Assembly: GCA_000004985.1 (NCBI GenBank)
Contig: GG738913.1
Source of the DNA: Naegleria gruberi
Taxonomy: Eukaryota
Direction: 5' to 3' (one strand)
DNA: 64,000 nucleotides
The notes below the pieces were generated by a model. It saw only the letters and a list, made by a program, of their open reading frames with translations. It was not told the origin of the DNA and did no database searches. Positions 1 through 36,300 of the stretch are shown here, one piece after another. A program made the position numbers and the translations under genes. Position 1 is the first letter of the stretch; each line of letters opens with the position of its first letter.

Positions 1-1481
1 AAAATAATTTAATTAATTTATTAGAAAGAGATTTTAAACAAATAGAAGATTTACCTATAAATATTAAAATTATACCTGAATGTAAATATTCATATGGAAC
101 TAGTATTATTGTAATTCAATTAAAAATATTAAATTTTATTAAAAATATTAAAAATAATGAAATGATTAAATTTATTCCATATTTATTAAAACAATTTAAT
201 AATTTAATTGATAAAAATGTAAATAAAAATGTAAATATAGAACAAGTTAGATTACAAATACTAAGATCAATAATTTCAATTTTGGAATTAAATTCTACTA
301 TTATAGATATTAATAATATTTTAAATTTATTATTTAATTATTATAATTTAATGTTAAAAAATGAAAAGATTTATTTTTTTATTTTAATTGATAAAATATT
401 AAATTTAAATTATATTCCAAATATGGAAATTACTATAAAAATGTTTGAATCATTTATAAATGATTTAAAAAATGAAAATGATTTAATTTTTCCAATTAAT
501 AATTTAATTTCAATTTCTTCTATTGAATTATATAAAAATATAAAAAATATAATTATAAATTTATTTAAAAATGAAATTCCAATTAAATTTATTATTTTAT
601 TATTTGAAAAAGATTTTAATTATTTTAAAGAAATGATAAAAAATGAAATTGAAATTTTAACAAGAATATTAAATTATTTAAATGATTTAACAATAACAGA
701 TTTAGTAAATGAAACATTTATATTAAATAATTATCTATATATAGTAAAAATATTTGATAATATACCAATTAATGAAGAATTATTTAATTCAATTAATAAT
801 ATAATTAATATTTTACCAAAAACATTTCGTAGTTGTGTAATTGAAAATAATTGTATAGTACCATATTTAGAATGGTTAATTAAATTATATAATACTAAAA
901 AATTATATAATTATTCAATTGAATGTAAAAATGATATTACAATAACATTAGTATCATATTTAATTAATATGATATTAGATACCTATTGTTTAGAAATGTC
1001 TTATTTATTACATACTATTTTAATAATTGATATTTGTAATGAAGAAAATCCAAATTCATTATCTATTTTATTATCAAGAATTAATGAATTATCAAAAGAT
1101 TTATCTTGTATTGAATTGAGATGTTTAACATGTATGATTATTTATCCATATTGTTCTGATTTTTTATGTGATAAATTTGCATTTCTTAATTGTCAATTCA
1201 TTGAATTATTAAATATTAATGATTTTAGATTGGATTGGTTGATTTATTATTCTCTATCTTTTATTAGAGTTTTAGATGATTTAATGGAGAGAAGTAAATT
1301 TTGTAAAAGTAGAGTTTTTACAATTTTTGAATATTTGGAAAAATTATTTACTATAATATCATCATCAACAACATTATCAATGAATATGATGGATACAAAA
1401 TCATATCATGAAATTATTAGATTTAAAAGAAAATTAAATATTTATTTGGAGGAAAGTAATAGAGAAGAGATGATTTTATAA
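1..1481 (+). CDS. Hypothetical protein, 5'-truncated at the window edge. Extremely AT-rich ORF giving an I/N/L/K-rich helical-looking protein.
   Basis: The reading frame is open from base 3 through the TAA at 1479-1481 (more than 490 codons) in roughly 12% GC DNA. An ORF that long without stop codons cannot arise by chance at this composition. No recognisable domain. Confidence 0.45.
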   Translation, partial: NNLINLLERDFKQIEDLPINIKIIPECKYSYGTSIIVIQLKILNFIKNIKNNEMIKFIPYLLKQFNNLIDKNVNKNVNIEQVRLQILRSIISILELNSTIIDINNILNLLFNYYNLMLKNEKIYFFILIDKILNLNYIPNMEITIKMFESFINDLKNENDLIFPINNLISISSIELYKNIKNIIINLFKNEIPIKFIILLFEKDFNYFKEMIKNEIEILTRILNYLNDLTITDLVNETFILNNYLYIVKIFDNIPINEELFNSINNIINILPKTFRSCVIENNCIVPYLEWLIKLYNTKKLYNYSIECKNDITITLVSYLINMILDTYCLEMSYLLHTILIIDICNEENPNSLSILLSRINELSKDLSCIELRCLTCMIIYPYCSDFLCDKFAFLNCQFIELLNINDFRLDWLIYYSLSFIRVLDDLMERSKFCKSRVFTIFEYLEKLFTIISSSTTLSMNMMDTKSYHEIIRFKRKLNIYLEESNREEMIL

Positions 1482-1513
1482 AAAGAATGATGATTCATTG
1501 GATCCAATTATTT

Positions 1514-1834
1514 TTATAATACTGTCATAAAATTAAGATTAACCTCCTTTTTTGTTATATTGTTATTGTTGAAGTGTTTCTTGTTAATTAGTACTCTATA
1601 TTTTGACATATTGGATTTAAACTGTTTGCTGTTCCTGCTCCCTTTGCTGGTTGAGGTGGTTGAAATTTCACACTCAACAGTTTCATTCACACAATAGTGA
1701 TGATCATCTAATTGAACAAGCCTAAGATTTGGGTTGGATTGTGGTGTAATTTTATAAAGGAAATTGAGATTGACTTCCTTAATTAATTCTCTATCATTTT
1801 GTAATTCTTCACCCATAAATCTATTTACTATCAA
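1514..1834 (-). CDS. Hypothetical small protein. A short 5' exon around 1900-2000 is possible.
   Basis: A 106-codon ORF with normal coding composition (GC-richer than its surroundings) on the minus strand. No homology recognised. Confidence 0.25.
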   Translation of the reverse strand: MIVNRFMGEELQNDRELIKEVNLNFLYKITPQSNPNLRLVQLDDHHYCVNETVECEISTTSTSKGSRNSKQFKSNMSKYRVLINKKHFNNNNITKKEVNLNFMTVL

Positions 1835-2435
1835 TTTTAAATGATCAATTTTATATAATAATTGTTGATTATTAATTTAGTAACAAAATTTAAATCTCTA
1901 AATACATGATTATCCTTTTTAAATATCATACTTTCCATATCTAATCTATCACAATAACTCATTTTATAATCAAATTTATTATCAAATAATATTGGTTCAA
2001 TAACATTTCTTGTTTTAAATATTCAAAAAAAAATAAAAATTTTGGATTTAAATTAATACATTTAATATTTGTTTATCTCTTATTGTATCTAATATTGAAT
2101 ATAGATAATTTATAGGAGGTGATTCATATTGACTTTGATTTTTTATAATATATTTAAATTATCTTGTATTGCTTTTGATGGATGTTGATATTTGGTTTTT
2201 AATAAAGAATTACAAGTAATATCTAATTTAATGATAACAATATTGTCAAATTGTGTAAAAATGAATACGAATATTAATTGCGTTTACAATCTTGCTATTG
2301 TTAATCGAATGAATATGAAAAAACCCAATGCCTATTAAATATATTCATCATTATCATCATTGTATAATATTATATTAAATAATATATTAATATTATTAAA
2401 TAATATTATTATTATAATACTAAAATTTAATAATA

Positions 2436-3083
2436 TTAAAAACATACCATTCCAAATAAAATAATAAAAGGTAACCAAGTTTTCAATAGACCACTCATAC
2501 CATTAACATATTTACCATAAAAAAACATTAAAAATCCAATTTCAAATATAGAAATATTTCCATTTTTAAATTTCAATTGATTTAAACAATGTATAGTATA
2601 ATGATGACAATTCTGACAAAAGAAATTATACATTTTAGATCTAAAACATTTAGCACTACTCTTAATAGTTTGATCATAGTTTTTTAATTGTTCTTGATTT
2701 AATTGATTTTTAATATTTAAATATCGAGTTGGTTTTCCAAATGCAAAATCATCAATACTAATATAATAGGGTCCTGCAAAATCATGAATTATACCTTTTG
2801 AATTAGCAATACCCATATGTCCAATAAATGGTAATATCCATGTTATTAATGGTATTGGTGTCCATACAATACAATAGGGATATCTATCTATTGATGGATT
2901 TATTATTTCATTATTATTATTATTATTATTATTATTGTTATTATTATCATGTTCATATTGTTGTTGTTGTTGTTCATAATCATCATCATCATCATGTTCA
3001 TTATTCATATAATCATCCGAATCATCATTGTGATGATGTGTTGATTGAATAATTTCCTCCTCCGAGTCATCATATTGTTGCAT
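2436..3083 (-). CDS. TMEM222-like (DUF778) membrane protein with an H/D/Q/N-rich N-terminus, including a 12xN run.
   Basis: The motif HMGIANSKGIIHDFAGPYYISIDDFAFGKPTRYL matches the DUF778/TMEM222 core. A-rich context lies upstream of the ATG. Appears single-exon. Confidence 0.65.
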   Translation of the reverse strand: MQQYDDSEEEIIQSTHHHNDDSDDYMNNEHDDDDDYEQQQQQYEHDNNNNNNNNNNNNEIINPSIDRYPYCIVWTPIPLITWILPFIGHMGIANSKGIIHDFAGPYYISIDDFAFGKPTRYLNIKNQLNQEQLKNYDQTIKSSAKCFRSKMYNFFCQNCHHYTIHCLNQLKFKNGNISIFEIGFLMFFYGKYVNGMSGLLKTWLPFIILFGMVCF

Positions 3084-3298
3084 TTTTTTTAATATTTTAA
3101 TTTATATAACTTTCTTATTAGATATCTGATTTGCTTGTCAATTTGTTTCAAACAAGACAAAATTTAGAGATTTATGCCATTAGGAGAATGTTCATGCACA
3201 TGATCACATAGATCATAATTTTTTAATTTGTAACCAAAATATCAACTTGATTTATTCAGCAGATTTATAATTCCATGTTTCATAATAAAATGGTCCAT

Positions 3299-3467
3299 GG
3301 CTGTGTAGCTCAGATGGGAGAGCAAGGGTAGTACACTTCTGGCACGCATGTTCCATTGTGATAATAATGGTTTGTACCGCCTAGTATTGTGTCACTAGAG
3401 TTGTCTTTCGATACCTCATTCCCCCTGGTCACACGATCGAAACGTGTCGCATCCAATACTTTTTTTT
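3299..3467 (+). ncRNA. tRNA-like Pol III element. It has a tRNA 5' half, a T-arm-like hairpin, a T8 terminator and an insertion of about 85 nt. Possibly a tRNA with an oversized intron, a pseudogene or a tRNA-derived element.
   Basis: GGCTGTG-TA-GCTCAGATGGGAGAGC gives an acceptor/D-arm with a canonical A-box. The hairpin ACACG-ATCGAAA-CGTGT lies at 3431-3447. CGCATCC pairs with the 5' acceptor at 5 WC + 1 GU out of 7. A TTTTTTTT run at 3460-3467 is terminator-like. Confidence 0.3.
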
Positions 3468-3574
3468 CTCATATTGTAAACATTATCTTTTCAGTGAATT
3501 TAATTGGTTAGTACAAATCATCAGCTTAAGGTTGAGATTCCAATTCAAATCAAATTAAAATTCTTTTTAAAAAA

Positions 3575-4018
3575 ATGCAACAATCAAACAAACGCTCTCA
3601 AAGTACAACCAACCTTATTAATTTGATATTGTTGTTGTGTTGTTTGTGTTTATTTTCTCTCCTCACCATTGTTACTAAATGTAGTGAAACTAATTCCGAT
3701 CTTAAATTGAATACTGATTCATCGTGTGCTGCAGTGAGTTGTTTAGTAGGATCCTATTGTGAGAATGGAAAGTGTGTTCCAATATTGAATAATAATAATA
3801 ATAGGATAGTAGCAGTTGGAAGTGATGATTCATCGTGTGCTGCAGTGAGTTGTGTAACTGGTTCAATTTGTCAGAATGGAAAATGCATTGCAACCAATGT
3901 TGGTGTAATAATGGAATCGAAAAGAAATTCAACTGCTAATCAATTAGGTGATGGAAAATTCAAGTTGGAGCTTTTTTCAATTATTGCTTTGATGTTATTA
4001 ATGACTTTATTACTTTAA
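3575..4018 (+). CDS. Small secreted Cys-rich protein with two tandem modules and a probable GPI anchor.
   Basis: Signal peptide (LINLILLLCCLCLF...). The module DSSCAAVSC-x-G-x-C-x-NGKC is duplicated. The C-terminus is hydrophobic after G/S residues. Confidence 0.4.
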   Translation: MQQSNKRSQSTTNLINLILLLCCLCLFSLLTIVTKCSETNSDLKLNTDSSCAAVSCLVGSYCENGKCVPILNNNNNRIVAVGSDDSSCAAVSCVTGSICQNGKCIATNVGVIMESKRNSTANQLGDGKFKLELFSIIALMLLMTLLL

Positions 4019-4110
4019 CAATTTCTCTCTCACTTGATATTATTATTACTCTAATGTCTATCTAGATAAATTAAATTAATTTGTTAAGTTGTATTAAGGA
4101 AAACATAAAT

Positions 4111-7100
4111 TTACAAATTTAAATGTTGTTTTTGAATATTAATATAATGAGTGTATGGATTAACAGAAAGAGAATCCAAAGTTAATTTTCTATCCTTTAA
4201 ATCCTTCATACATTTAACATATAAATTAAAAACTTCATAATTATTGAATAAATGTTTGTCATAATTAATTGCCTTTCTTCTAATTAAATAATGTTGTTGT
4301 AAAAGTTTTTGATTATGATCTGGGAATGGAACATCAATAATTAAATCAATTTCACTTCCAATTTTACGTAAAATTTCAGATTCTTCTTCAAGTTTCAATT
4401 GAGATGCTAAACAAATACCATTAAATCTCATTAAAGATGTAGCAGATGACGTAGCAGATAATTCTTGTTGATCAATGAGTGGAACATATTGTTGTAATTG
4501 TAAAGTATGATATTTAACATTTGGTAATTGTTGAGATAATTTCTCACCAACATATGGAGTAACATAAATTGTAAATCTCAAATGTTGATATAAAATATAA
4601 ATGGATTGTAAAATATGATTAATTAAATCCATATTTGTACGTGTTGAATGTGGGAATGAAGCAATTAAAACTGATTTTCTATCTGTATCTATATTTGGTA
4701 AATTAGGGAAGGCACTCATCATTCCTTTTAAGAAGGCATCTCTAACTGTTTGTCCAAAACATGCTACTTCACCTGTACTTGCCATTTCAACTCCCAACTT
4801 TGGATCACAATCTAATAATCTTCTAAATGAAAACATTGGAGCTTTACATCCATAGAATGATTTGGAAAATCTCTTTCTTTGAATAATTTCAAATTCTTTT
4901 GTAATAATACTATCTATCATTATCATCAGTTTTACCATTACTATTATTTTGTAATGATGATGTATTAGAATGTGTAATGGATTCAACTTGTTCACGTTTC
5001 ATTGTAATTTGTTCAAGTAAATTCATTTGTTGATAATAATTTCTAGTTGGAACATTACTACCTGGTAAGCTTGTGATGGTATTTGAATTGACCAATGATG
5101 ATGCTAATGATGAAGAAGAAGATGGTAAATTGAAATGATGAGTAAAGATTCTAGTAGCCAATGCAATAAAATCCAAATCTAAAGTCTTACTAATGAATGG
5201 GAATGATCTACTTGCTCTCAAATTACATTCAATAACACGTAATCTCTTTGATAATTTCAAATATAAAGATTCAGATTCAAAACTATCATCATATCCATCT
5301 AGTGAATTTGTTGAGAATGATTGAGTCATTCCTTGTTGTTGTCCATGTTCTTCTTCTTCTTCTTGATCATCATCATGAATACATTCATTATCAAATAAGA
5401 ATTGCATATTAAATGGACCACTAATTGATAAAGATTTAACAATCATTGATGCCTTTTCTCTAATTAAATCTTGAATATCAAAACTCAATGAATAAGGTGG
5501 ACAAATTAGAGTAGCATCACCAGAGTGAGTACCTGCTCTTTCAACATGTTCACTAATTGCATCAATAATAATTTCACCATTCATTGCAACACCATCAATT
5601 TCAATTTCTTTAGCATTTTCATAAAATTTAGAAATGACAACTGGATGTTCTTTAGAAACGTCAGCAGCCATATATAATTGTTGTAATAATTCAGAATCTG
5701 AATAAGCAACATTCATTGCAGCACCTGATAAAACATATGAAGGTCTAATTAAAACAGGATATTGAACCTTATTAGCAAAAATTAAAGCATCTTCAATAGT
5801 AATTAAATTAGCCCATTCAGGTTGATAAACCAATTTGTCACCTGTCTTTTCATTAACAAGTGAATCTAAGAGTTGTGAAAATTTAGAACGATCTTCACAT
5901 TTATCAATTGAATCTGAACTAGTTCCTAAAATTTTAACATGACATTGTTTATCCAAAGGTAAAACAATATTATTAGGTTGTTGACCACCAACACTAACAA
6001 TAACACCTTGTGAATGTTCCAATTCATAAATATCTAAAACTCTTTCTAAACTTAATTCTTCAAAATATAAACGATCAGGTTCATCATAATCAGTTGAAAC
6101 AGTTTCAGGATTATAATTAATCATTATAGTCTTGTAATTTAATCTCTTCAATTCTCTAACACTCATCACACCACAATAATCAAATTCAACACTACTACCA
6201 ATTCTATAAACACCACTTCCTAATACAATTATACCTTCATCATTAAATGAAACATCATGATGATAACAATGATCTGGATAAATCATTTCACCTCCTTCCT
6301 TTCCAATACTATTAATACCTGCATTATAGGTTGTATAGAGATAATTTGTTTGTGCTGGATATTCTGCTGCTAATGTATCAATTTGTTTAACAATTGGTTC
6401 AATCTTATATTGATACTTTCTAATAAATCTAACCATTAATTCTTTATCAATCTTACTTAATTTAGGTGGATTTTTATAGGTATCTTTATATTGTGGTTGA
6501 GTATTATTAGTATTATTATTAGTAGTATTATTAGTATTATCAGTAGTAGTATTATTACTATTATTATTAGTATTAGTATTATTATTGAAACATGATAATT
6601 GATATGGGAATTGAACTTGATTCTTTAAAATTGCTTGTAAAAATTCATGATATAACAATGAAGGTAAACTTGAAGCAATTTGTAAATCAGAGAAACCTTG
6701 TTGTTTGGAAAGTAAAAGTAATGGATATGGAAGTTCAGGTAATGAATTCAATAATTTACCAATTCCAACCAATGCCTTCTTAGTTTGAATAATATTTTGT
6801 AATTTGTACAAGAACCAACGATCAATTTGAGTAAATTGATGAATTTGGTCAACTGTCATTTCAAAATGTTCCATAGCAAGTGAAATAGCAAAGATACGTT
6901 GATCAGTTGGATGAGTTAATTCTCTAATAATCTTTTGTTTGATATCTTCTTTTGGTGAAACTTGTGGTTGTAAAGCAAATGGATTAGTGACACTACTATT
7001 AAATAAGTGAGAATGAGAACTAGATCCAAAACTACCATAATGAGTTTGACCAAAGCTTCCAAAATGAGTAGAACCAGATCCAAAACTACCATAATTAGTA

Positions 7101-10100
7101 TTAGCAGAACCAACACTATTATGAGATGAACCAGAGTGATGGTGATATTGATACTGTTGATGGTGATGTTGGTGATGATTTGAAGAAGCAGTAGTAGTAT
7201 TAGTATTAGCAGCAGTATTAGAAGAAGAAGAATATTGTTTCATCAACTTTTCCAAATCAAATGAAGAATTGGCAGAATCAAATCCTCTATATGAAGTATC
7301 AACCATTCTAATAGCTTTTTGAATTGCTTCTTCAAAATTTCTACCAATGGCCATCACTTCACCAACACTTTTCATTGCTGATCCAATGACAGTTGAAACA
7401 CGAGTGAATTTCTTCAAATCCCAACGTGGCATTTTAACAACACAATAATCTAATGCAGGTTCAAAACAAGCAATAGTTTCCTTAGTAACAGAATTCTTAA
7501 TATCAATCAATTCCATTCCCAATGAAAGTTTAGCAGCAACAAATGCAAGTGGATAACCAGTTGCTTTTGAAGCCAAAGCTGAACTTCTTGATAAACGAGC
7601 ATTAACTTCAATGATAACATATTCCTTACTGTATGGATTCAATGCATATTGAATATTACATTCACCAACAATACCCAAATGTCTAATAACCTTAATAGCA
7701 GCAGTTCTCAACATGTGATATTCATCATTATTTAATGTTTGTGATGGTGCAACAACAATTGATTCACCTGTATGAATACCAACTGGATCAAAGTTTTCCA
7801 TATTACAAACTGTAATACAATTATCATTACAATCACGAACAACTTCATATTCAACTTCTTTCCATCCCTTAACTGATTTTTCAACAAGAATTTGAGGTGA
7901 ACTTGAAAGTGCTTGAGTTGCCAATTCTCTCAATTCACGTTCATCATTGGCAAATCCACTTCCTAATCCACCCAATGCAAATGCTGCTCTAATAATTACT
8001 GGATAACCAATGTGAGAGGCTGCTAAAATTGCCTCTTCAACATTATCACATGCCTTTGAATCAGCAATTGGTTGTGAAATTTCACGCATCTTTTGATTGA
8101 AAATATCACGATCTTCAGTATCAATAATTGATTGAACAGGTGTACCTAATACTCTACAATTCAATTCTTCTAAAACTCCTGATTTGTGTAATTGAACACC
8201 ACAATTTAATGCAGTTTGACCACCAAATGATAAAAGTAAACCATCTGCATTCTCCTTCTTAATGACTTTTTCAACAAAATCAGGTGTAACTGCCCCGAAA
8301 TAAACTCTATCAGCCAATTCTTTACATGTTTGAACTGTAGCAATATTTGGATTAACTAAAATTGTATAAATTCCTTCTTCTTTAAGTGCTTTAATAGCTT
8401 GTGATCCTGAATAATCAAATTCACCTGCTTGACCAATTTGTAAACCACCTGAACCTAAAATAATAACCTTCTTTGGTAATACCTTCTTCTTTTCATCAAG
8501 AGTTGAGAGTTTCTTTTCTTCTTGAATAATTGATTGATTAAAAATACTCTTCTTCATTAAAGATTCTTGTTGTTTTAAAATTGGAGTTGAAATATCTGAA
8601 GTATCTTCAACAGATTTCAATAATTGATTGAATTTAGTTTTCATATTCTTATGATGTTTGATAAATACTTTGCTATATTTAGATTCAAAATTTTTAACAC
8701 GATGTAACTTGTTTGAAATCTTTAATTTGATCAAATCAATAAATTGATCAAATAAAAAGAAAGTATCACTTGGTCCACCTTTAGCTTCTGGATGAAATTG
8801 AGCTGTAAAAATTGGTAAATTCAAACAATAAACACCTTCATTAGATTGATCATTGGCATTAATGAAATATGGTTTGAAATTTGAAGGTAAAGTTTGATTA
8901 TCAATAGCATAACCATGATTTTGTGAAGTGATAAAACATTTACGTGTTAATTGATCAATAACAGGTTGATTATGACCTCTATTACCAAATGGTAATTTAT
9001 AAACACTTGCACCAATAGCTTTACCAACCAATTGATTACCTAAACAAATACCAAAAATAGGAATAATTGGAACTTGTTGTTGTTGTTGAACTAATGAAAT
9101 ATATTCAGATAAAATTGAAATAGTTTCATGGAAATTATTTGGATTACCAGGTCCATTACTAATAAAAATACCATCAATATTAGTATTATTAGTATTATTA
9201 GTATTATTATTATTAGTATTATTATCATTGTTGGTATTATTATTGTTTGAATTATTAACATCTAATTCTAACCAATTATAATTATATGGAACAACTTTCA
9301 ATTCAACATCTCTTTTAACAAGTTCACGAATAATATTATATTTCATACCACAATCAATAGCAATAACTTTAAACTTATTACCTTTACCATAAATAGTAAC
9401 ATCTTTACAAGTTACTTTCTTAATAATTTCAACATCTTGACCTGGATCATACCATTGTAAAGGAGCAAGACCTTTAATAGAAAGTTCATGTTCATAATTA
9501 ATATTTGTAACAATTCTTGCTAACATTGATTTTTCATCTCTCAATTTCTTTGTAATTGCTCTCGTATCAATGTGATATAGAGCTGGAATATTATATTCTT
9601 GTAACCAACGATGAAGTGAACAAATTGCTTCATAATGTGAATAATTATGTGAATAATCTTGAACTATTAAACCTCTAATATGAATCTTATCACTTTCTAA
9701 TTTTGGAAGCAATCCAAATTCATCTAAATTCTTATTACCATTATTAGAAACTGTTGTTTTGAAATTTGGTGCACCATAATTACCAACAAGTGGAAAAGTT
9801 AAAACTAAAATTTGACCATGATAAGAAGGATCAGTCAATGATTCAGGATAACCAACCATTGCAGTTGTAAAAACACATTCACCACTCACAGAAAATGGTG
9901 AATTCCAATTGGAATCATTTTCAATTAAACACTTATTAGCTCCAAATAATTTACCATAATATCTTGTACCATCTTGTAATTCTAAATAACCATCAAACAT
10001 ATCAGATGGTGATGGTTGATTATTATTCATCATTTTACCATTATTATTATTATTATTAGGATTAGGAATGGTAGTAGTGGTTGTAGTAGTATTTGTAGCT

Positions 10101-10366
10101 GTAACAAGTGTAGAATTGGATGATGATTCAGATACTGTTGGTGAGGTTGTTTGATTCAGAGAGTTGGAATTTGAATCATCGGACAATAATAAAGAAGCAG
10201 CACTCAATAAACTATTCAATGGATTATTGGTGGTTGAAGCAGAATGACCTGTTACTGCTGCTCCTCCTGTGGTGGTTGTAGAATTGGATGATGGATTGGT
10301 GGTGGTATTAGCCTTATTATTGGCATAAACCATGTAGGATTTGTTAGAAGGTGATGGAGAGTACAT
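4111..10366 (-). CDS. Carbamoyl-phosphate synthetase, glutamine-hydrolysing: fused GATase + large subunit + C-terminal MGS-like domain, with no DHOase/ATCase. N/T-rich insertions. At least two coding segments are joined across 4910-5070.
   Basis: Small-subunit N-domain and GATase signature (FGICLGNQL). Two ATP-grasp halves are present ([22 protein letters not shown] and [21 protein letters not shown]; [17 protein letters not shown]). The STGEV motif is followed by an MGS-like fold in the 4111-4995 frame. The likely start is the ATG at 10366 (aaaaaagaATG). The two ORFs are in different frames. Confidence 0.8.
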
Positions 10367-11491
10367 TCTTTTTTGAATTGACAATTGTTGATTAATGACA
10401 ATGAAAGACAAATACAAACATTTAACTACTGTTTTTCAACAAAATTGTGTATTAGTTTCTAGAGTGTATTGTTTTTAGAGATGCTCAAGAGAAAAAGAAG
10501 TACTTCTCGTGCTCTTTTTTTCGAGAGGGTTTTATCACTCAATCCAACCCTGAGCGAATTTATAGTCCTCAACTACCCACCTAATATCTTCCCAACCATT
10601 GCAATTAGCCTCAACATGTTCATTGAAGAATTGTGCAGCTTTCTTATTTTACATTGTAATCCTGTGTGTGGGAGAAAAGCTAACGTTCGGATTTCAAAGT
10701 GGTGGTCTGAGGTAATTTTTCAAAGGTTCCTCTGCTAAAGAATCCAAGAGCTTGTTTGGAAAAAGAGATGTTAGTTGGTGGGTACCACAAGAACAACATG
10801 AGGTTGGTACATGTGAACGAAAGAGAAATAACCATCATCAGAATGTTTCTCATTAAAAAGAAAATATGAATAAAACAATGTCTATCAATATTGTGGAAGG
10901 AAATGTAGAATTTTGAACTGTTTGTTGAGAAATATATTACCAGAAAAAAACGACATTTTCTATCAAGGGAGGACACCAACAATGATTACAACGGTGATAT
11001 TTAATCGGAAGATAATGGATTAGGCTGACTTTCCTTAAAAATGAGGAGAGTTTATATTTGAACAACTACGATTTTGAAACTCAAACCCTGCATATTACCT
11101 TTGTGATAAGTATGTACTACACTCAGAAGAAGAAATGATAACACTGAGAAGGCCTACGAAAACTCAAACCTAAGGAAAGTACGCTTCAAGCAAGGGAGAC
11201 TATCATTGTAGAACAACTATTTGTAATTGGATCCTTAACTCTCTAATTTCCAACTTATTCTGATATGAATTGACGTTTGTACAAAAGCTAATTACATTCA
11301 CAAAGTATAGTAAGATCCTAACACTGAATTGTAATTCACCAACATGGAGTTGAGTGTGACCAATGTTCCACTGTCAATCATCAATCATTAACCAATAATA
11401 ACTGAATTCAATAACCCAAAATTAAGGCGGGAAACTAAAAATTTACAGTTTATAGACGTTATAAAAATCCTTAGAAAAAAATTTAAAAAAA

Positions 11492-16400: not shown

Positions 16401-17503
16401 TCAAAGTATTTTCAAAACTTACTTTTCTCCATTTGATAATTTTGTAATAATTTCTTTAAGATGAAGTAAACTAAGGTTAATATTTTGACCTTCTCTCTTT
16501 CTATTATAATCTGCTTGTTCACTACTGTTTTCACTACCTGCCAAGTCAACCAAATTAAGATTTCCTATTCTTACAATTTGTTTAGATTTAGCTTTCTTTG
16601 CAAGTGATGATTGTAATTGTTGAGCATTATCCACTGCAAGTTCATCTTTTCTTTCTACAATCATTCTGAAAATAGTGTGTGATCTTGATGAAGCATCATT
16701 TGCTACTGTCTTGGCCACCATAATATGAGAAGTACCTCTAGAAATAATATCCATTGTTTCTTGTTCAGATCTTACAATTTCCTCAGTTAAATGATCGAAT
16801 GACAAGTTTTTCTAATAATATTAAGTTCAATATTCAATCTATTCAAAATATTATTTACATACATTCTTATCAACGAAAATATTTACATATCTTTGCTCTG
16901 GTGATAATAAATCTCTCACTTTTTCATTATAAATTTCCAAATATGAAACTCTGATAAGGAACGTTCTATTTTCTCCTTCCTTAATACACAATAATAAATA
17001 TTGCAATTATAAATTATACTTTAAATTACATACACTATTTTTGATTTGATCAAAAACATCTCGGATTGCCAATCTAATGAGACCTGGTTTATCATTGGTT
17101 CCTTTCATTCTATAGATTTAAATGTATTATTAATCAGAGATTAACAATTTTAAAATCAACCTACGTAAATGTTTTACCTGAGGCTGTTTGTCCATAGGCA
17201 AATGTAGTTACATTGTATCCCTCACAAACAGAAGGAACCATTTCCGAAAGTAATTTGTCATATATATCTTTTGTATTTGATAATTCATCAAAGACAAAAT
17301 CTACAAGAAGGTTTAAGAGAATTAGTAAATTGTTGATACCTACCAAAATTCATTGATTTTGTCAAGGTGGGATCTTGATTTTTCAATTCAATTGAATTTT
17401 CGTTAATATAGAATGGAGGTTCCTTATTTTGCATTTCAAGCAGTTCGTTTGCAATGAATGGACGACATCGGACACAAACTTTGATATTGGTTTGGTTTGT
17501 CAT
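13431..17503 (-). CDS. Kinesin-like protein with an N-terminal motor, a coiled-coil stalk and a tail of about 600 aa rich in S/T/P/N/Q; six exons.
   Basis: join(17503..17344,17300..17165,17109..17034,16979..16887,16811..16423,16383..13431). Motor motifs present: IKVCVRCRP, FAYGQTASGKTFT, VSYLEIYNEKVRDLL, SSRSHTIF, LVDLAGSE, SKLTRILGDSLGG. Introns are 39-75 nt with GTAGGT/GTATGT/GTAAAT/GTAAGT donors and TACTAAT/CTAAT branch points. Confidence 0.8.
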
Positions 17504-17678
17504 CTTCCTTATTGTTTTTGTTAGTGAATTACTGCTATTTTTTTGAAATAATTCAGTAGAAGCGCGTTTGGAACTCTCTAAACATCAAATTCTCTCTGTA
17601 ATTAGAACTCACATTTGATTAGATTGTTAGAGATATTGTTACAGAGGAATTAGAAAGTTGTCTTTTACAAAATATTTA

Positions 17679-19553
17679 TTAAGGATGGAAATGTGGTCGC
17701 CAAATGAATACACCTCCTTCTTCTCCGACACTACAAATAAATCGTCCACAAGGACTAAACTTTGCTTTTGTGATATTTCCTGCATGTCCTAAACCTTGTT
17801 GAACAATTTCACCGTTGTCATAGTGCCAAACATTGACAACCTTTTGTTTACCACCCGACACAAAGTATTGACCATCGTAATCAATATCTAGAGCATTCAT
17901 TTCATCTTCTTCGGCTTCTCTTAATTCTCTGATAGCTGTACAATCATATGCATCCCAATAGGTTACTTGCTTATCTGATCCACAAGTCAACAATTGAGAT
18001 TCGTCATTAAGATAACAAATTTGTCTGAAATAAGTTGGAGCATAAATAATGTTTGCTCTCACAAACTTGTCCAAATTCCAAACAATACAGGTGCCATCGT
18101 CGCTTGATGTCACGCATTCAGAATTGTCTCTTCTAATATGGATAGAGTTTACGGTTGCCTTGTGCTCGTTCATTGAAGCTACTAATGTTTGTGAGGATTT
18201 TGCTACTTGCCAAACTCTAACCTGACCGTCACTACCACCACTTACAATTCTCTCAGAGTCACTAGACATGGTGATAGCTGTCACACCTACCAATCTTCCT
18301 GATACCTTCTTTTGACCCAAAATCTTGTGTGCGTCATTTATGACATATAATAATTTACCACTTTGAGGACCAAAAGCTCTGATTTTTCCATCACTCCAAC
18401 CACTGATGATAGCATTACCAGTTGGACTGAAAGTGATGCAGTTACATTCCAAGTTTGGAACTTGAATTCTAAGAAGCTCCTTTGATTTAAGAACATTCCA
18501 AACTCTAATATCATTAATTGAGCATGTTGCAATAATTTCACTAGCTTCTCTTGGATAACAAACATCGTTAATTCTATGGCTATGGCAAGTAGCAATTAAT
18601 GTAGCTTCAAGTTTACCTGATCCCTTCATTGCATAAATGACAGATTGGTTTGTTCCACAAATTAATATGTTGTCACTTTCTCTAGCACAAATTGATGTCA
18701 CACCACCCATAAGAATTGTAGAGCTAATTTTAAGGAGAGTATCTTTTGCAACAACAGTGACACTACCATCGCCACCACCAATAAATATTGATTTTCCAGA
18801 TGGAGAGAAACACAAACTCTCAACACCTTGAACAATCTTTTCTTTTGGACCCATAAACTTAAAGTTTTTAGGACCTTTTAATTGAACACAAATAATATCA
18901 CCAGTTGTAGATCCCATATATGCATAACTGTCTTCATCATCAATGAGTAAGCATGAAAATATTCTTTTAACTTGTCCAAGATTGCAATCGATAAAGTCCA
19001 ATCTCTTATTAACAAAATCAATTGTATAAACTTTGCACATTTGCTTTCCAGCAACCATGAATGTGCTTCTATCGTTATGGAAAAATTGAACACAAGTTCC
19101 GAGGGCTGTTGTTGTCGTACCACAAACAGGCTTACCAGTTTGAACGTACCAAACAGTAATATTATTGTCATCTCTACCACCAACACTGACCAAAAGTTGT
19201 TCATCTTCACTAAATGAGAGGCATTCTACCTTAGCATGGTGAAGATTTAATCTATGAAGAAGTCTTCTTTCCTCGAAATCCCAAATGATAATATCGGCCT
19301 TAAATCCCATATGGGTTGTTTGTCCTGTTGCAATAAATCTACCAGTCTTTGAGATAGCCAAGCAGCTGATAGGACCATTATGACCCGAAAGAAACTCATC
19401 TACCCCAAGGTTTTCAAATTCCTTAATGACCACTGTTGAACCAAGGGGATAGATAATATGTTTTTGATTTGGATGAAGGTGTAATCCGGTATTGACTGTG
19501 CCATTAAAACCAATCACGGTATCTAAGTAAAGTGATGAAGCTTGATTCTGCAT
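17679..19553 (-). CDS. Tandem WD40 beta-propeller protein, CFAP52/WDR16-like.
   Basis: A 624-aa single ORF. The N-terminal block LDTVIGFNGTVNTGLHLHPNQKHIIYPLGSTVVI...GFKADIIIWDF matches the CFAP52 family, and the C-terminus ends where the human protein does. WD repeats run throughout. Confidence 0.6.
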   Translation of the reverse strand: MQNQASSLYLDTVIGFNGTVNTGLHLHPNQKHIIYPLGSTVVIKEFENLGVDEFLSGHNGPISCLAISKTGRFIATGQTTHMGFKADIIIWDFEERRLLHRLNLHHAKVECLSFSEDEQLLVSVGGRDDNNITVWYVQTGKPVCGTTTTALGTCVQFFHNDRSTFMVAGKQMCKVYTIDFVNKRLDFIDCNLGQVKRIFSCLLIDDEDSYAYMGSTTGDIICVQLKGPKNFKFMGPKEKIVQGVESLCFSPSGKSIFIGGGDGSVTVVAKDTLLKISSTILMGGVTSICARESDNILICGTNQSVIYAMKGSGKLEATLIATCHSHRINDVCYPREASEIIATCSINDIRVWNVLKSKELLRIQVPNLECNCITFSPTGNAIISGWSDGKIRAFGPQSGKLLYVINDAHKILGQKKVSGRLVGVTAITMSSDSERIVSGGSDGQVRVWQVAKSSQTLVASMNEHKATVNSIHIRRDNSECVTSSDDGTCIVWNLDKFVRANIIYAPTYFRQICYLNDESQLLTCGSDKQVTYWDAYDCTAIRELREAEEDEMNALDIDYDGQYFVSGGKQKVVNVWHYDNGEIVQQGLGHAGNITKAKFSPCGRFICSVGEEGGVFIWRPHFHP

Positions 19554-19659
19554 GATGATTGTATTGATAAGTTTAATTCTTCGGAACCTATCTAATGGAA
19601 CTATGTTGTTTTTTTATGAATTGTTTATTTTTCAAAACGTAAATAAAATTGGCGGCAGT

Positions 19660-19735
19660 TTATTCTGATGGCGCCAAAGCAACTTTTATTCCATCATCTT
19701 AGATCTTCTGAATGTAAGTGTTGGCGCCATTTCAA
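19660..19735. promoter_or_regulatory. Candidate E2F-like palindromic GGCGCC motifs in the promoter shared by CFAP52 (minus strand) and the Zn2Cys6 gene (plus strand).
   Basis: TGGCGCCAAA, TTGGCGGCA and TTGGCGCCATTT lie within about 70 bp, 110-180 bp upstream of the CFAP52 ATG. Confidence 0.2.
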
Positions 19736-20478
19736 AATCAAGTAAAAATGAACAATGAATTAAAGGAAGGTGATCACAGAAAAACTGAGCGGATTCATTC
19801 AACAAAATTATAATTTCAACAGAGTATGAAACGAAGCACGTATCTCAAAATACCTCTACCGAATATCACAAATGTTATTAAGCCTAACTTTAAGCATTGA
19901 ACATTTCGAATTCTATTATTTGTTGATGAATTCAAATCAACATTACTAAAACACAAACTCAAACTAAACTCTGTTCAAACTTCAGAGCTGTCCTTCTTCC
20001 TGATTGGTTGTTAGATCTCTTTTTAGGAGTTGAAATTGCTGATCGATAAAAAGAAAATTTGTTTGATCTGACTTTGGAAAGAAAATATTTTCTCCTTCCG
20101 TATCTTGATTCTTCAAGTCCAATCAAATGGAATAATTTATGAAATTGTAAACTCAGTTTAAATCTTACAAAATAATAAATAATCTCTGTTGCTGACTTTC
20201 AAGTGTCCACTATTTAGCCTTTTTTCTCTTATTGCTCCATAATAATACAAGAATCGGGTTAAGAATTGCGCAAAGAAGGCCGCAATAGCCAGTACGGGGA
20301 AAAAAATAAATGGGAAATAAAAAAATTGTATTGTTACCTACCTGAATACTGATTGCATCAGAATCATCAACCTTTGAATCCTCATCAATAGGAAGAAACA
20401 AAATCAATTAAAAACAATAGAAAAATTCTTTCCTTGGATTATTCCTTTGGATAGTGAATATTATTTGAAAATATCATC

Positions 20479-26372: not shown

Positions 26373-29300
26373 TTATACTTTAGAAACCAAGTCAACCAAG
26401 TATTTAAAATCAATTGATTTCCTCAAGTCAAATGAAGGATTTGTCACTAAATCATACTTTTCATTCAATTCCTTTAAAAATTCTCTATCATATCTTAATG
26501 AATAGTTTGCATAAACAATACTTTCCTTATTAATTTCCATACATTTAGAAATAAATTCCCTATTTGATCTTAGCTCATACGGTAAATAGACGATAGTATC
26601 GCAAATATCACTTGATAAACTGGATAAAGCAATTTCCCAATCACATTTCATATCGTAGGTACATGAGATTATGCTTTCCTTACAGCTTTTAACAGCCGTC
26701 AAGTTAATTTCTCTATCCTTCAAATATTCTAAAGGTATAAACAGGAGTGTGTGAGGAAATTGAACTGCTTTCAATACTAAATTTCTATCCAAATAATAGG
26801 GTGTTGAAATTAGATATTTCAATACTTGTCCATTAAGTTCAATGCATTGTGAAATAAATTGATAATCTTGTTGTAATTCTTTACATGCATGTGAAAATAT
26901 GGAACTTGATGATTTTACAGCCATTAACATGATTTGTCTATCGTGTGAAAATTCCAATTGTAATTCTCTTGATAAAAGAATAAATGAATCTCCATGGGTT
27001 TGCATTGATTTTAAGGCAATTTCACGATCATTTCTAAATTTCAATGGGATATTAATTAAATTATACTCCATTGGTTGAATTTCTAATAGGAATTTCTTGT
27101 TTAGTTTCATTGACGTCCATTTTAAATTATCCATATTCTTATTGACAGCTTTCAGGGCAATTTCATAATCATTTCTCATATTAAATTGAAGTTGGTTAAA
27201 TTTAAACTTATTTTCAATTGCTTGTAAGGCCATTTCCTTTGTAATAAAGGATTGAAAATAGGTTTCTTCATTTGTATGAATTGAAAGTCCATTTCTAATA
27301 GCAGTTTCAAATATTTCACTATCATTAATTTGTAATTCCTTTGAGGAACAGTAAAAAGCATTTGGGTAGTTATCCACAGCTTTTAACACAATTTCTCTAT
27401 CATTTTGATATTCAGAAGAACAGTATTGTAATACTTCACCCTTCTTTGAAATTGCCTTGATTGCCAATTCTCTATCACTTCTCAGCTCATGTGAAATAAA
27501 ACAATAAATTAGTGGATTAATATCCATTAGTTTTGAAACAAAATTCTTGTCGCTTTTCAATCTGTTACTTGCAAATTCAAAATATTCACCAGTCCAATCA
27601 GTATCAATAGCTACTTGAACAATTTCTTCATCATCCTGATATTGTGATGGAACTGATTGTAAGTTTTTTCCATTAGCTTTACATGCTTCATAACAAATTT
27701 CCCAATCTAAAGGTCTATAAACAATATCACTTAGAGAAACGGACGTATTTGCGTTAGCTTTTAAAGTCATTAATACAATTTCTCTGTCATTTTTCAATTC
27801 GTAAGAGGCTTGTTCATATTCTGTTGAAGACATCTGAATGGCAATTTCAACAATTTCTCTATCATGTTTGAAATCGAAAGGAAGACTTGCGATAGTTTCA
27901 ACTTGTTTTGTATATTCCAATGCTAAATCTCTATCATGAGCTAGTTCATCTCCAATATTTTCATAAATATCATGATAGGTATTCCTAGCGGCTTTGAGGA
28001 ATAGGTTTCTGTCGTTTTTCAAAGTTTCATCTGAAATGTGTATAAAATATGAACCTCTCCTTTCAATCACTTGATTAATTAATTCAATATCATTTTGAAG
28101 TTCCTTTGAGGCATATTTAAAATTGTTATAATGATATTGAATAGCTTCCTTAATAAATTCCCTGTCGTTTTGAATTTCCTTTGAGGCAAATGTTAGAGAT
28201 GATGGACATAATTGAATAGCTCTTCTTACAATTTCTCTATCGGATTTGAACTTTTCAAATATTGGATCTTGGTGATGAACAAAACTCGAGGGTTGATATT
28301 CTAGTAATTGTAGTATGTGCTCTCTATCAATTAATGAACTGAAAGTTGGTTCTTCAAGTTTCGCCTTGTATATGAAAGTTGGATCAATTTCAATCATTTT
28401 CATTTGGAATTTTTCCTTAATTTTCTTAATATCAAAGCCTCTTTCCTCACCAAATCTCGTGTGATCACTTATTAATTCAATTATAAACTCGTCGTCGTAT
28501 TGTATTATTGGATTAACACATGTTAAAAATTTTAAAAAACATTCAGTTGATGTAATTGAACTCATTAGCAATTCCTTATCAAATTTCAAATCATCACTAG
28601 CATGTTTAATTGCTTCAATATTATTCCTAATAGCAAGTGTAACTATCTCTTTATCATTCTTCAAAGATTCGTGGGAATATGCTAAATTACAGCCATTCTG
28701 TTTAACCGATTCCATTACAATTTCTCGGTCAGATTTGAACTTGTCATTGACATATTGAAGAGTGTCACCTTTGTTTGACTTGACGAATTGTAAGATCACA
28801 TCTCTATCATTTCTAAGTTTTTCTGGAATATAGCGGAAAACCAAACAATTTCTAACGATTTGTAAAATTATTTCCTTGTCAAATTTAAATTCTTCTGGAA
28901 TGAATCTAAGAATTTCTTCTTTTTTGTGTTTTGTCGATTTGATTGCTTTCAAAATCAGCTCTCTATTAATAAATTGTTTCGGAACAAATTCAATCATTGT
29001 TCCATTATTACTAATTGCCTTATCTATGAATATTCTTTTCATTTTCAATCGTTCTGATAGAAATTTATAAGAAAGTCTCTGACAATCAATTGCAATTAAA
29101 GCAATTTCTTCATCATCATGAAAATTCTCTAAAAATTCAAAGGTACAATTAATAGATCTACCCCAATAGGGAGATTTGCCCTTCAATATCGCAACTTTAG
29201 CAAACTCTCTATTTCTCTTCAATTCATCACTTGCAAACGAAACTGCCACTGCATTACTACGTGCAGCAAGAATCACCATCTCTTCATTATTCCTAATCTT

Positions 29301-29624
29301 ATCACCTGCAAATTGCAATAAATTTCCATTATGGTGAATTAATTTGTAACAAATGAGTGGACAATGAGCATCTGGAAGTGGATTTTCTTGGAGGTAGCGA
29401 ATTGGATTTCTTGAAGCAAGTACTTTTTCCAAATGTTCATATTTGAATAAAAGTGATGAAAGTTGGCGAGTGGTGGTTTCTTGAAAATGTTTTGTAAGAA
29501 ATTGTGTTGTTGTATCAATATGTTCTAGTTCAACAATTTGAAAATCATTATCATTGTATTGATTGTTTGTTGAATGAAAAATGGTTCGGATGATCAAATC
29601 ACAACCATGGTTTCTGATAGCCAT
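26373..29624 (-). CDS. Large DUF4116-like repeat protein with about 25 degenerate repeats of roughly 36 aa.
   Basis: A 1083-aa single ORF. The repeat unit [LI]KAV..NG..LQY.S.EL.NDREIV recurs throughout. Confidence 0.55.
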   Translation of the reverse strand: MAIRNHGCDLIIRTIFHSTNNQYNDNDFQIVELEHIDTTTQFLTKHFQETTTRQLSSLLFKYEHLEKVLASRNPIRYLQENPLPDAHCPLICYKLIHHNGNLLQFAGDKIRNNEEMVILAARSNAVAVSFASDELKRNREFAKVAILKGKSPYWGRSINCTFEFLENFHDDEEIALIAIDCQRLSYKFLSERLKMKRIFIDKAISNNGTMIEFVPKQFINRELILKAIKSTKHKKEEILRFIPEEFKFDKEIILQIVRNCLVFRYIPEKLRNDRDVILQFVKSNKGDTLQYVNDKFKSDREIVMESVKQNGCNLAYSHESLKNDKEIVTLAIRNNIEAIKHASDDLKFDKELLMSSITSTECFLKFLTCVNPIIQYDDEFIIELISDHTRFGEERGFDIKKIKEKFQMKMIEIDPTFIYKAKLEEPTFSSLIDREHILQLLEYQPSSFVHHQDPIFEKFKSDREIVRRAIQLCPSSLTFASKEIQNDREFIKEAIQYHYNNFKYASKELQNDIELINQVIERRGSYFIHISDETLKNDRNLFLKAARNTYHDIYENIGDELAHDRDLALEYTKQVETIASLPFDFKHDREIVEIAIQMSSTEYEQASYELKNDREIVLMTLKANANTSVSLSDIVYRPLDWEICYEACKANGKNLQSVPSQYQDDEEIVQVAIDTDWTGEYFEFASNRLKSDKNFVSKLMDINPLIYCFISHELRSDRELAIKAISKKGEVLQYCSSEYQNDREIVLKAVDNYPNAFYCSSKELQINDSEIFETAIRNGLSIHTNEETYFQSFITKEMALQAIENKFKFNQLQFNMRNDYEIALKAVNKNMDNLKWTSMKLNKKFLLEIQPMEYNLINIPLKFRNDREIALKSMQTHGDSFILLSRELQLEFSHDRQIMLMAVKSSSSIFSHACKELQQDYQFISQCIELNGQVLKYLISTPYYLDRNLVLKAVQFPHTLLFIPLEYLKDREINLTAVKSCKESIISCTYDMKCDWEIALSSLSSDICDTIVYLPYELRSNREFISKCMEINKESIVYANYSLRYDREFLKELNEKYDLVTNPSFDLRKSIDFKYLVDLVSKV

Positions 29625-29843: not shown

Positions 29844-29916
29844 GACAAGCATAGCTCAGTGGGGAGAGCAGCAGAGCCCAGCACTGCGGGTCAGAGGTTC
29901 GATTCCTCTTGTCTGT
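29844..29916 (+). tRNA. Probable tRNA gene. Its cloverleaf has canonical length, with anticodon CCA (Trp) under standard numbering, but with non-canonical features.
   Basis: The layout is ACAAGCA-TA-GCTC AGTGGGGA GAGC-A-GCAGA GCCCAGC ACTGC-GGGTC-AGAGG TTCGATT CCTCT-TGTCTGT-C. A-box and B-box are canonical, and a TTTTT terminator follows immediately. Anomalies are an A4·C69 mismatch, an A31·A39 mismatch and C33 in place of U. Confidence 0.5.
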
Positions 29917-30328
29917 CTTTTTATGTTGAGAATTTCTATATTTTCTTAACAGTTGAAATAACAGGGTAGACAGATCTTAAAGTTTACAAATATTTTCAAT
30001 TAACAGCAAGTCTTATTCCAGAGAACAGTATTTTCTTTGGTCTACTTTAGATAGTTGAAACAAGGCTATTAATCTTTTAAGACTATGGGATCAGAGTAGA
30101 TTACAATTTCCACCACAGGGTTTTGCCTCACAGTTTGTGCTTCCGAAGATTCCCCGTTGACATATGTTGAGGTTCCTTTTTTGTTCTCCTTATCCCATCG
30201 GTATGAGTTTGTGCTCACGCATGATCCATTCATTCGGAAGTTGCTGATCAAATAAATAATGTGTGAAGCAAATTTCATCAAATAATCAAAAACAAAATCA
30301 TAAAAAACAACAACATTCACTAATCAAA

Positions 30329-33308: not shown

Positions 33309-36300
33309 ATGTTTGGACGTTTCTTTGGTAGTAAAAACAAGGCTGCATCAGCTGATGATGATATTTCTCAAGTTGAAACAACCACAACCACCACTACAAA
33401 TACAACACACCAACCAATGAAGAACAACAACAAGCAGTACACTAAAAAGGAGCCAAAGAATAGTGCTCCAAAGAAAATTGAATTATACGACAATGTAAAG
33501 ATAGTATCGGGAACAAGCATTCCAACAGGATTGGCTGCCAGTAGAGCTACTTGTATCAAGAAGACACCAATCACTGATAATATTCCTACATTCGAATCAA
33601 GTCCTGATTCTTTCATCCATGTACATATTGGAAAGGAATATTCTGACAAGGCTTCATCAGTTTTACCATTGGTGGCTCACAAAGTTCAATGTCACGTCAT
33701 GTATCCTATTGTTCAAGTCGTTTTCCACAATGACTTTTAGAAATACTATTGAAAATAGATCAATTGAAGGTGAATTAGTTCTTCCAATGCCTGAAACTGC
33801 CACGATGACTGGTTATGCAATGGAAGTTGATGGAAAACTCATTGATGCAGTTCCAGTTGAAAAGGAAAAGGCCAAGGAAGTTTTTGAAAGTGAAGTTAGA
33901 GCTGGAAATAAGGTTTCAATGGTTGAAAAGGTTGCACAATCCAATTGTTTCCGTACTCGTATTTATCCATTACCATACAATCAAGATAAGACAATTCAAG
34001 TCAAGTATCAATTAATGTTGAATGAGATTATCGAAACTCAAAATGAAAATGAAACTGGTACAATTAAGGGCACTGCTTGGTTCCCTGTTACTTATACAGA
34101 TTTCTCAGTATTAAGAGAATCCAACATTGAATTTACTTTGAATGAGACATCATTGCAAGGATATGAAACTAATTTTACAATGAAAACTTCAGGAGTTGAA
34201 GAAAAGACTATCTGGTCAAGTAAGAATGCAAGCAAGAGAGCTGCTTATTTCAATGTTACCAAGAGTGATTTATCTGACAAATTGATTGGTTTTGGTATTG
34301 AAATTACCAAACAGGCTGATTCAGTTAATAATATTTTACTTGCATCAGAAAATGGTTACTTTATGACCTCTATCCCAGTTCCATCTTTGACCGAAGAAAT
34401 GAGAAATATGTCTCGTATTGGAGACAAAATTCAAATTGTTTGGGATTCATCACTTTCACAATCTAATTGTCATGCAAAGAATTTACAATTATTCAAGGCA
34501 ATTTTGGAAGCTTTGAATCCAAAAGCAATTTCCTTCTCAACATTCAGTAATGCCATTGTAGATCAAAAGAATTTTTCATCCACTTCAGATGCTTTGAGTT
34601 ATGCTGAAAAGATTGTTTATGATGGTGGTTCTAACATGCTTGTTTTCGATCAAAATTTGATTGATGATAGTTTTGATTATTGCATTGCTTTTACTAATGG
34701 TGTTCACACAATTGGACATGAAATTACCCCATCATGCAGCTTTGAAAGACCAATTTACTTTGTCAACGCCTCATCTACTGTTAATATCAATCTCTTGAAG
34801 CACATCTCTACCAAGTCTGGTGGTGTTTACCTCAATGCCAACGAACTTTCACAAGATCAAATTTTGAATGCTATTGGTAAACCAGTCTTGTCATTTGTTG
34901 TTGCAGATTTCGAAGATTCTGATATGGAAGAAGTTTATCCAAACGAACCAGTTTCTTTGAAGGAAGGAGAAATTTTCAAATTATATGGTAAAATCAAAAA
35001 CTCTGGAAAGGAAACAGCTAAGGTTGCTGTATCTTTCAGATATGGTTCAAAGATTTATCACATTCAAGAACTTGATATTCCAACAAGTGTTAACAATGTT
35101 CCTGAAGAGGCTGCCATTCTTCCAACTTTGTGGGCTCAACAAAAGATTGACTCTCTCTCTGCATTCCCTCAACTTTTCAAGGATGATATTAAGAAGATTG
35201 GCCAAGAATTTAGGATTGTTACTGACAATACTTCCCTGATTGTTCTTGAAACTTTGAGTCAATATCAAAAACATGACATTGTTCCGCCAAAGACTCTCAC
35301 TGAAGTCTATAAACAATTCATGCAAGTAAAGACATCTGCACAAGAAGCTAAGGATAAACAAGAAAAGGAAAAGTTAGAAAGAATTATTAGTATGTGGAAG
35401 GAAAGAGTTAATTGGCATAAGACTGACTTTAAATTACCTGAAGAAAAGCCAGAAAAGGAAAAGAAAAAGTTGGCTGCAATGGATGACTGTATTTCTGAAT
35501 CTCTCTCTGTACAATCCTCTAGTTTGGATAGTTGTTGTAGATGTGAGGAGAGTAGAGAATGTTGCAGAGAATGTTGCAGACGTTCTTGTGCACCATCTCC
35601 AAGTTGTGCTAGAAGTTGTTGTTGTCGTTCTGCTAGTCCTTCTTTGAGTTGTTCAGATATCAGTTCAGGTCCACCACCAGCTTTTGGAAGTGCAGGTAGT
35701 CCACCACCTCCTTCTGCTAAGTCAGTAGCCTCTCAAGAAGAACCTAGTGTTGCTGGTACCATTAAGGTTAAAGCATGGACTCCAGATGCTGCTTATTGTA
35801 CTGCCATTAGTCAAGCTAAAGATCCATATGAAGAATATGTTAAACAAAGAGAAAGTTATAGAGATTCTCCAGCTTTCTATTTGGATGTTGCTGACTATTT
35901 CCTTTCATCAGTTAAGAATAAGGAAATTGGTGTGAGAATTCTTACCAACGTTTCAGAGCTTGAATTGGAAAATGTTCAACTTTATCGTATTGTTGGTTAT
36001 AGACTTGATCAAGCTGAAGAATTGGAATTGGCTGAATGGGTCTTTGAAAGAGTTAAGAGCATTAATGGATTTGAACCTCAATCATACAGAGATCTTGCTC
36101 TAGTTAAGGAAAGAATGGGAAAGCATGAAGAAGCTATGGAATTATTCAATAGAGTTATTGTTGGTAAATGGGATCTTCGTTTTGATGAAATTGAAATGAC
36201 CGTTGCTACAGAGATGAACCATCTTTTGCTTAACAATCCAGATTTACCAATCATTGATAAGAGATTGATTCACAAGTTTGACCTCGATATTCGTATTTCA

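Follow-up and report, generated by a model that had tools for sequence, protein, structure and literature searches.

A candidate lineage-restricted gene in an extremely AT-rich part of a Naegleria nuclear sequence

An open reading frame of extreme base composition lies at the beginning of the 64-kb stretch of Naegleria DNA analysed here (the window). With a probability of about 0.58, this ORF is the 3' part (at least 492 codons) of a real nuclear gene, either lineage-restricted or diverged beyond recognition, which would encode a helical scaffold protein and lie within a local extreme-AT domain of the chromosome. As a truncated orphan ORF it is a lead rather than a result. Its importance hinges on whether the AT-rich domain is a structural feature of the chromosome or a novel integrated element.

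Results

Coding status of the AT-rich ORF

The ORF and its parts, with the evidence used to define them, are as follows.

3..1478, plus strand: AT-rich ORF, 3' part of a protein-coding gene starting upstream of the window (translation, stop counts, codon-position statistics)
1002..1478, plus strand: C-terminal third of the ORF (codon-position GC by thirds and in 60-codon bins)
1479..1481, plus strand: stop codon TAA of the ORF

On the plus strand, frame 3 contains no stop between base 3 and base 1478, which gives 492 codons before the TAA. The first ATG is preceded by 53 codons that are stop-free as well, back to the start of the window, so that the gene begins upstream and is truncated here. 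The local base composition (A 44%, T 41%, G 9%, C 6%) predicts a stop codon about every 9 codons, and the probability of 492 stop-free codons arising by chance, calculated from this composition, is 2e-26. The remaining five frames over the same interval contain 17–88 stops each. An earlier note on this DNA had described a stop-free frame of about 490 codons, and that description was borne out. A chance ORF is ruled out by the probability given above. Tandem or simple repeats are also ruled out as the source of the open frame, since TRF and repeat scans returned only short low-complexity matches.

The same note had inferred purifying selection, and this is supported in the form that the frame is, or until very recently was, under such selection. 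Of the 4428 possible single-base changes in the ORF, 319 (7.2%) create a stop codon. In simulations of neutral drift the frame was broken at a median of ~10 substitutions, equivalent to ~0.7% divergence per site, and by ~3% divergence in 95% of runs. The composition of the ORF needed hundreds of substitutions without a fixed stop, and the frame was therefore protected by selection at least until very recently. The improbability of the open frame, a GC3 far below GC1 and GC2, and a helical periodicity in the translated product together identify a genuine rather than a chance coding frame. Tryptophan is encoded twice by TGG and in-frame TGA is absent, which argues for the standard code; an alternative code, or an endosymbiont origin with UGA read as Trp, is unsupported.

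Base composition and codon usage

GC content is 12.1% over bases 1–1000 and 14.4% over bases 1–1481, with 19% in the last third of the ORF. The value of about 12% given earlier for the whole frame is thus accurate for bases 1–1000, its first two thirds, but too low for the ORF as a whole and for its last third. GC1, GC2 and GC3 are 0.193, 0.185 and 0.055, respectively. GC2 climbs from 0.11–0.17 to 0.28 toward the C-terminal third and GC3 there is still at most 0.10, a combination that fits mutation pressure acting against stronger constraint in the last third (mutation-selection balance). Constraint in the visible protein is probably strongest in the C-terminal third, where most of the Cys, Arg, Asp, Trp and Ser residues are found.

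The description of the ORF as an extreme compositional outlier among the genes of the window stands. The 30 other ORFs of at least 150 amino acids have a mean GC content of 33.1% (SD 3.9, minimum 24.1%), and the AT-rich ORF falls 4.8 SD lower. It contains the lowest-GC 1-kb windows of the entire 64 kb and lies below every other stretch between long ORFs (24–36% GC) as well as below the spacer beside it (21% GC). At three related Naegleria loci the lowest 1-kb windows have 29–31% GC. Published Naegleria genomes have 33–37% GC (PMC12482156; PMC9928731), and the window has 32%.

The encoded residues reflect this bias. Ile accounts for 17.7% of the 492 residues, Leu for 14.2%, Asn for 12.6%, and Lys and Glu for 7.3% each; the protein is also rich in Phe and Tyr. 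It contains only 1 Gly, 1 Ala, 2 His and 2 Trp, so that Gly and Ala together make up 0.4%. The five codons AAT, ATT, TTA, AAA and ATA, which had been said to be used almost exclusively, provide 244 of the 492 codons (50%), and Ile, Asn, Leu and Lys together 52% of the residues; the bias is real but was overstated.

The earlier note also proposed a codon-adaptation comparison with the genome. Made against sets of host genes, it showed a clear difference even in synonymous choice among A/T-ending codons. The fraction for ATA is.32 in the ORF and.07–.11 in host genes, and that for GTA is.73 as compared to.09–.17. The A/T-ending synonymous codon correlation between the ORF and host gene sets is 0.39–0.45, as compared to 0.86 between one host set and another. 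The ORF has no codon-usage adaptation.

Low GC was also seen at two other places in the window. An NHL-like ORF at 38941–39867 (plus strand), made of near-identical tandem repeats, has a GC3 of only 0.04 with normal GC1 and GC2 (0.39). It lies 38 kb from the AT-rich ORF and shows that the latter is not alone in having a very low GC3. The ORF that follows, at 39892–41142 (plus strand), has a BTB domain, and the two are probably one gene. A second low-GC spot at 59.2–59.8 kb was rejected as an artefact of an assembly gap, a run of Ns at 59472–59724, which marks the sequence as a scaffolded draft.

Predicted protein and homology searches

Hydrophobicity along the translated ORF has an alpha-helical period, peaking at 105–110 degrees per residue (z = 4.5 against residue shuffles). 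The profile and fold search that had been proposed for the full protein was run on the visible 492 codons: profiles gave no family, and the AF2 model is all-helical and of low confidence (pLDDT 50, pTM 0.34), with 24 helices in a solenoid-like arrangement. The visible protein probably has an all-alpha, solenoid-like fold, and its predicted role may be that of a soluble scaffold for protein-protein interaction. In fold class the low-confidence model resembles the HEAT/ARM alpha-solenoids, such as importin-beta and the exportins, Integrator subunits 4 and 7, MMS19 and huntingtin. Unlike those proteins, the ORF has no profile match, since no HEAT/ARM or other Pfam family was found even at E values up to 1, and it has no detectable internal repeat: local alignments of segment against segment scored like shuffles (z from -1.4 to 1.0).

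Searches for relatives were negative at every level. The ORF had no family match in Pfam (E = 1), PHROGs or NCBIfam, and its matches to PDB sequences were at chance level only. A word-indexed search of 5.8 billion protein clusters gave 0 matches. Exhaustive phmmer against 1.84 billion representatives found no relative, mitochondrial proteins from Naegleria or other organisms included. Nothing was found by tblastn against plasmids and phages, or by pattern and tblastn scans of viral, JGI metagenome and GTDB prokaryotic genome contigs. The 64-kb window holds no paralogue, and exact look-ups of window ORFs, the ATG-started 439-amino-acid version of this protein among them, found no record in protein databases. 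The empty searches of protein, family, structure, viral, plasmid, prokaryotic and metagenome data are best fitted by a lineage-restricted gene or by one that has diverged past recognition.

Genomic context

Downstream of the ORF, the following features provide its context.

1482..2435, no strand: spacer between the convergent AT-rich ORF and RTE1/TMEM222 gene; 954 bp, 21% GC, the most AT-rich non-coding stretch of the window
1514..1834, minus strand: small ORF of 106 codons inside the 28–31% GC island of the spacer, a possible small gene
2436..3083, minus strand: RTE1/TMEM222-family gene (Pfam PF05608, E = 3e-41; homologues, synteny)
4111–10417, minus strand: glutamine-amidotransferase and carbamoyl-phosphate-synthase (CPSase, CAD-like) gene, from its domains; GC3 uniformly low, ~0.12
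17679–19553, minus strand: CFAP52, 85% identical to N. fowleri and 77% to Willaertia magna

The ORF is contiguous, with no intervening Ns, with the RTE1/TMEM222, CPSase and CFAP52 genes, whose best matches are from Naegleria. These neighbours, a DUF4116 repeat protein and others in the window are eukaryotic genes. The RTE1 product of the window is 74% identical to that of N. gruberi, 61% to N. lovaniensis and 55% to Willaertia. The RTE1/TMEM222 gene is vertically inherited and ties the locus to the Naegleria nuclear genome, and the window as a whole is nuclear DNA from a Naegleria species belonging to the gruberi lineage. An ENA metagenome contig (ERZ929261 k127_268307, from run ERR1078381, PRJEB11402) is 99.0% identical to window positions 16636–19799 over 3166 bp, which places the same Naegleria species in an environmental sample.

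The immediate neighbours of the ORF, which had been described as genes of normal composition, are only roughly so; with 24–30% GC and a GC3 of 0.12 they are on the low side. GC3 of RTE1 is low in N. lovaniensis too, so that this feature is gene-specific and cannot speak for a regional effect. An argument from a regional isochore alone, based on the GC3 of the RTE1 and CPSase genes, is weakened both by the N. lovaniensis RTE1 and by the NHL-repeat gene described above.

From the ORF into the spacer, GC content rises smoothly over ~1.2 kb, from 8–9% at 300–600 through 15% and 20% to an island of 28–31% at 1500–1800. No N run or sharp compositional junction was found between the ORF and RTE1. The interval 1840–2440 had been called near-pure AT; this was not the case, as it has 16.3% GC, AT-rich only, and adjoins the 28–31% GC island. 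Within positions 1–4200 no hallmark of a mobile element, virus or organelle was seen, the upstream side lying outside the window. There were no convincing terminal inverted repeats in 1–2500, where repeat matches were low-complexity AT only, and no tRNA, Rfam family or mitochondrial gene in 1–3000. The small minus-strand ORF in the island may have an upstream exon beginning at an ATG at 1962 with a GTATGA donor; it has no Pfam match and no counterpart at two related Naegleria loci.

Beyond RTE1, a second island of ~150 bp with 48% GC lies at 3301–3450, in the AT-rich intergenic stretch that separates RTE1 from a small Cys-rich ORF, and ends in a T-run (~3460). It resembles a small non-coding RNA gene; Rfam gave only a weak, sub-threshold snoRNA match on the minus strand, and the predicted fold is not better than that of shuffles (z = -0.7).

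Synteny

Gene order was compared with two loci, one from N. lovaniensis (L001) and one from a Logan-assembled Naegleria contig (L003). In both, RTE1 has a divergent gene of 346 amino acids on one side and a convergent gene for a Ser/His/Gln-rich transmembrane protein on the other (L001 10911–12206; L003 5317–6339). In the window, the homologue of the 346-amino-acid gene is at 11.5–12.8 kb, ~8.4 kb from RTE1, with the CPSase gene and the small Cys-rich ORF between them. The convergent position beside RTE1 is occupied by the 954-bp AT-rich spacer and the AT-rich ORF. The transmembrane gene of L001 and L003 was rejected as a positional orthologue of the ORF because similarity is nil. By these comparisons the ORF is situated at a synteny break, or rearrangement breakpoint, relative to two other Naegleria; the unrelated gene found there in both is consistent with a lineage-specific gene. 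As a separate observation, the CPSase gene lying between RTE1 and the homologue of the 346-amino-acid gene implies an insertion or rearrangement of 8.4 kb in this lineage.

Discussion

Proposed mutation bias in a local extreme-AT domain

The preferred reading places the nuclear gene in a short, extremely AT-rich domain of the chromosome that would cover at least window positions 1–2550, coding and non-coding DNA alike. Strong local AT-biased mutation pressure would act there on a weakly constrained protein, whose helices would tolerate almost any of I, L, F, K, N and E. This would have left only 5% GC at third positions and 19% at the first two, with Gly, Ala, His and Trp nearly lost. Selection would still hold the frame open and maintain the amphipathic helix pattern. 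We infer that mutation bias combined with weak constraint is the cause of the composition. A local chromosomal domain is favoured because GC rises gradually and because the adjoining non-coding interval 1840–2440 is itself at 16% GC. Since the non-coding DNA of the window is otherwise 24–36% GC, a genome-wide neutral equilibrium cannot give 12%, and a special local regime must be postulated. Codon choice among A/T-ending codons speaks against this reading, being unlike that of the host; a foreign origin would explain it equally well.

Comparable effects of AT bias on proteins are known. In Plasmodium falciparum and Dictyostelium discoideum it raises I, N, K, F and Y and lowers G, A, R and P with function kept. 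In those organisms the bias is genome-wide, whereas here it is confined to ~2.5 kb in a window of 32% GC, and the ORF, with its near absence of Gly and Ala, is more extreme than either proteome. Another likeness is to orphan AT-rich ORFs in heterolobosean mitochondrial DNA, such as ORF603, ORF802 and ORF1592 of Acrasis kona, which are also long, free of homologues, very low in GC3 and depressed in GC1 and GC2, and whose composition was read as the outcome of long AT mutation pressure under low constraint (PMC4202320). The present ORF differs from those in being joined to nuclear genes, in having no organellar gene beside it and in lacking any match among mitochondrial proteins.

If the ORF belongs to a working nuclear gene, it would represent an unusually extreme reshaping of a protein by mutation bias, with 0.4% Gly plus Ala and nearly half of its residues Ile, Leu or Asn. 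It would also imply that mutational or recombinational regimes, little known so far in Naegleria, differ sharply from place to place along the chromosomes. Gene predictors are likely to overlook genes of this kind, and short-read assemblies are likely to contain too few of them; none of the protein databases searched contains this one.

Alternative explanations

The earlier note had named a horizontally acquired, organelle- or plasmid-derived gene, a rapidly evolving lineage-specific gene and part of a mobile element as possible origins. The rapidly evolving, lineage-specific origin fits best, given the lack of homologues and the synteny break. The others drew no positive evidence: there is no donor match and no neighbouring gene of such a kind, the boundary is gradual, Trp follows the standard code, and the related sequences looked for in mitochondrial or extrachromosomal DNA were not found among known mitochondrial proteins or plasmids. 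Foreign DNA recently integrated at the synteny break, that is, an orphan gene of an unknown and extremely AT-rich virus, mobile element or endosymbiont, is nevertheless the alternative to which the composition lends itself, far outside host coding and non-coding DNA as it is, and it would also account for a codon choice unlike that of host genes even among A/T-ending codons and for the different gene at this position in N. lovaniensis and the Logan Naegleria. Acanthamoeba offers a precedent in endogenous viral regions with deviating GC (PMC11702301; 10.1101/2024.09.23.614596), local compositional islands in a host chromosome as is the region described here; capsid genes and terminal inverted repeats are present in those elements (PMC11702301), but neither was seen at the ORF. 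An integrated origin is unlikely, however, in view of the empty viral, phage, plasmid, prokaryotic and metagenomic sequence and family searches, the lack of a hallmark gene, integrase or convincing terminal repeat in 1–2500, and a compositional shift that is gradual with no sharp junction. Known giant viruses and virophages, moreover, have 20–30% GC or higher, not 12%, which counts against a viral source. Viral genomes have not been seen to endogenize in Naegleria (PMC11043551), and N. clarki yielded no integrated capsid genes (10.1101/2024.09.23.614596). If the DNA were foreign, this genus would have its first indication of an integrated element. It is decidedly unlikely that the window, with this ORF, reaches just into a discrete extreme-AT domain (at most 10% GC) of a Naegleria genome that otherwise has 32–35% GC, be it a non-recombining or centromere-proximal region or an integrated ultra-AT-rich virus or selfish replicon; to our knowledge the centromere DNA of Naegleria is uncharacterized. 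Were that so, orphan genes with a function would survive in a place where mutation acts differently from the rest of the nucleus.

An organellar or other extrachromosomal source, either as a very recent NUMT of a lineage-specific organellar orphan ORF or through an assembly chimera, is highly doubtful. Heterolobosean mitochondrial DNAs are very AT-rich (16.7% GC in Acrasis kona) and hold unshared orphan ORFs of up to 1,592 amino acids with low GC1, GC2 and GC3, like the ORF studied here (PMC4202320), and the window comes from a scaffolded draft containing a gap of Ns, and its edge truncates the ORF. Against this, exhaustive searches gave no match to a Naegleria or other mitochondrial protein, positions 1–3000 contain no tRNA, rRNA or mitochondrial gene, and neither Ns nor an abrupt junction separate the ORF from RTE1. 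The ERZ929261 assembly recovered a single-copy nuclear gene at 99% identity yet gave the databases no protein resembling the ORF, which would be unexpected of high-copy DNA. A soluble helical-repeat protein would also be atypical of mtDNA-encoded products. Finally, a recently inactivated gene remnant, or a never-functional frame that has so far escaped a stop, would agree with the lack of homologues, with a composition extreme enough to suggest very weak amino-acid constraint, and with the lack of codon-usage adaptation. It is very improbable, because a chance frame is excluded (2e-26), because a neutral frame would have been lost after ~10 substitutions when the composition required hundreds with no fixed stop, and because the amphipathic helix signal is kept.

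Other features of the window

Several further features were noted. A tRNA-Trp (CCA) gene at 29844–29918 (plus strand) was called by ARAGORN and Rfam alike, and a 93-nt tRNA at 37903–37995 (minus strand), found by Rfam only, suggests an intron-containing tRNA gene. Large ORFs include one with VIT and DUF2135 domains at 33619–36654 (plus strand), one with 20 copies of DUF4116 at 26373–29624 (minus strand), and one with a right-handed beta-helix (NosD-like) region at 50757–52934 (minus strand). The VIT/DUF2135, DUF4116 and NosD-like domains have mostly bacterial annotation or no assigned function, and may represent old gene transfers or lineage expansions.
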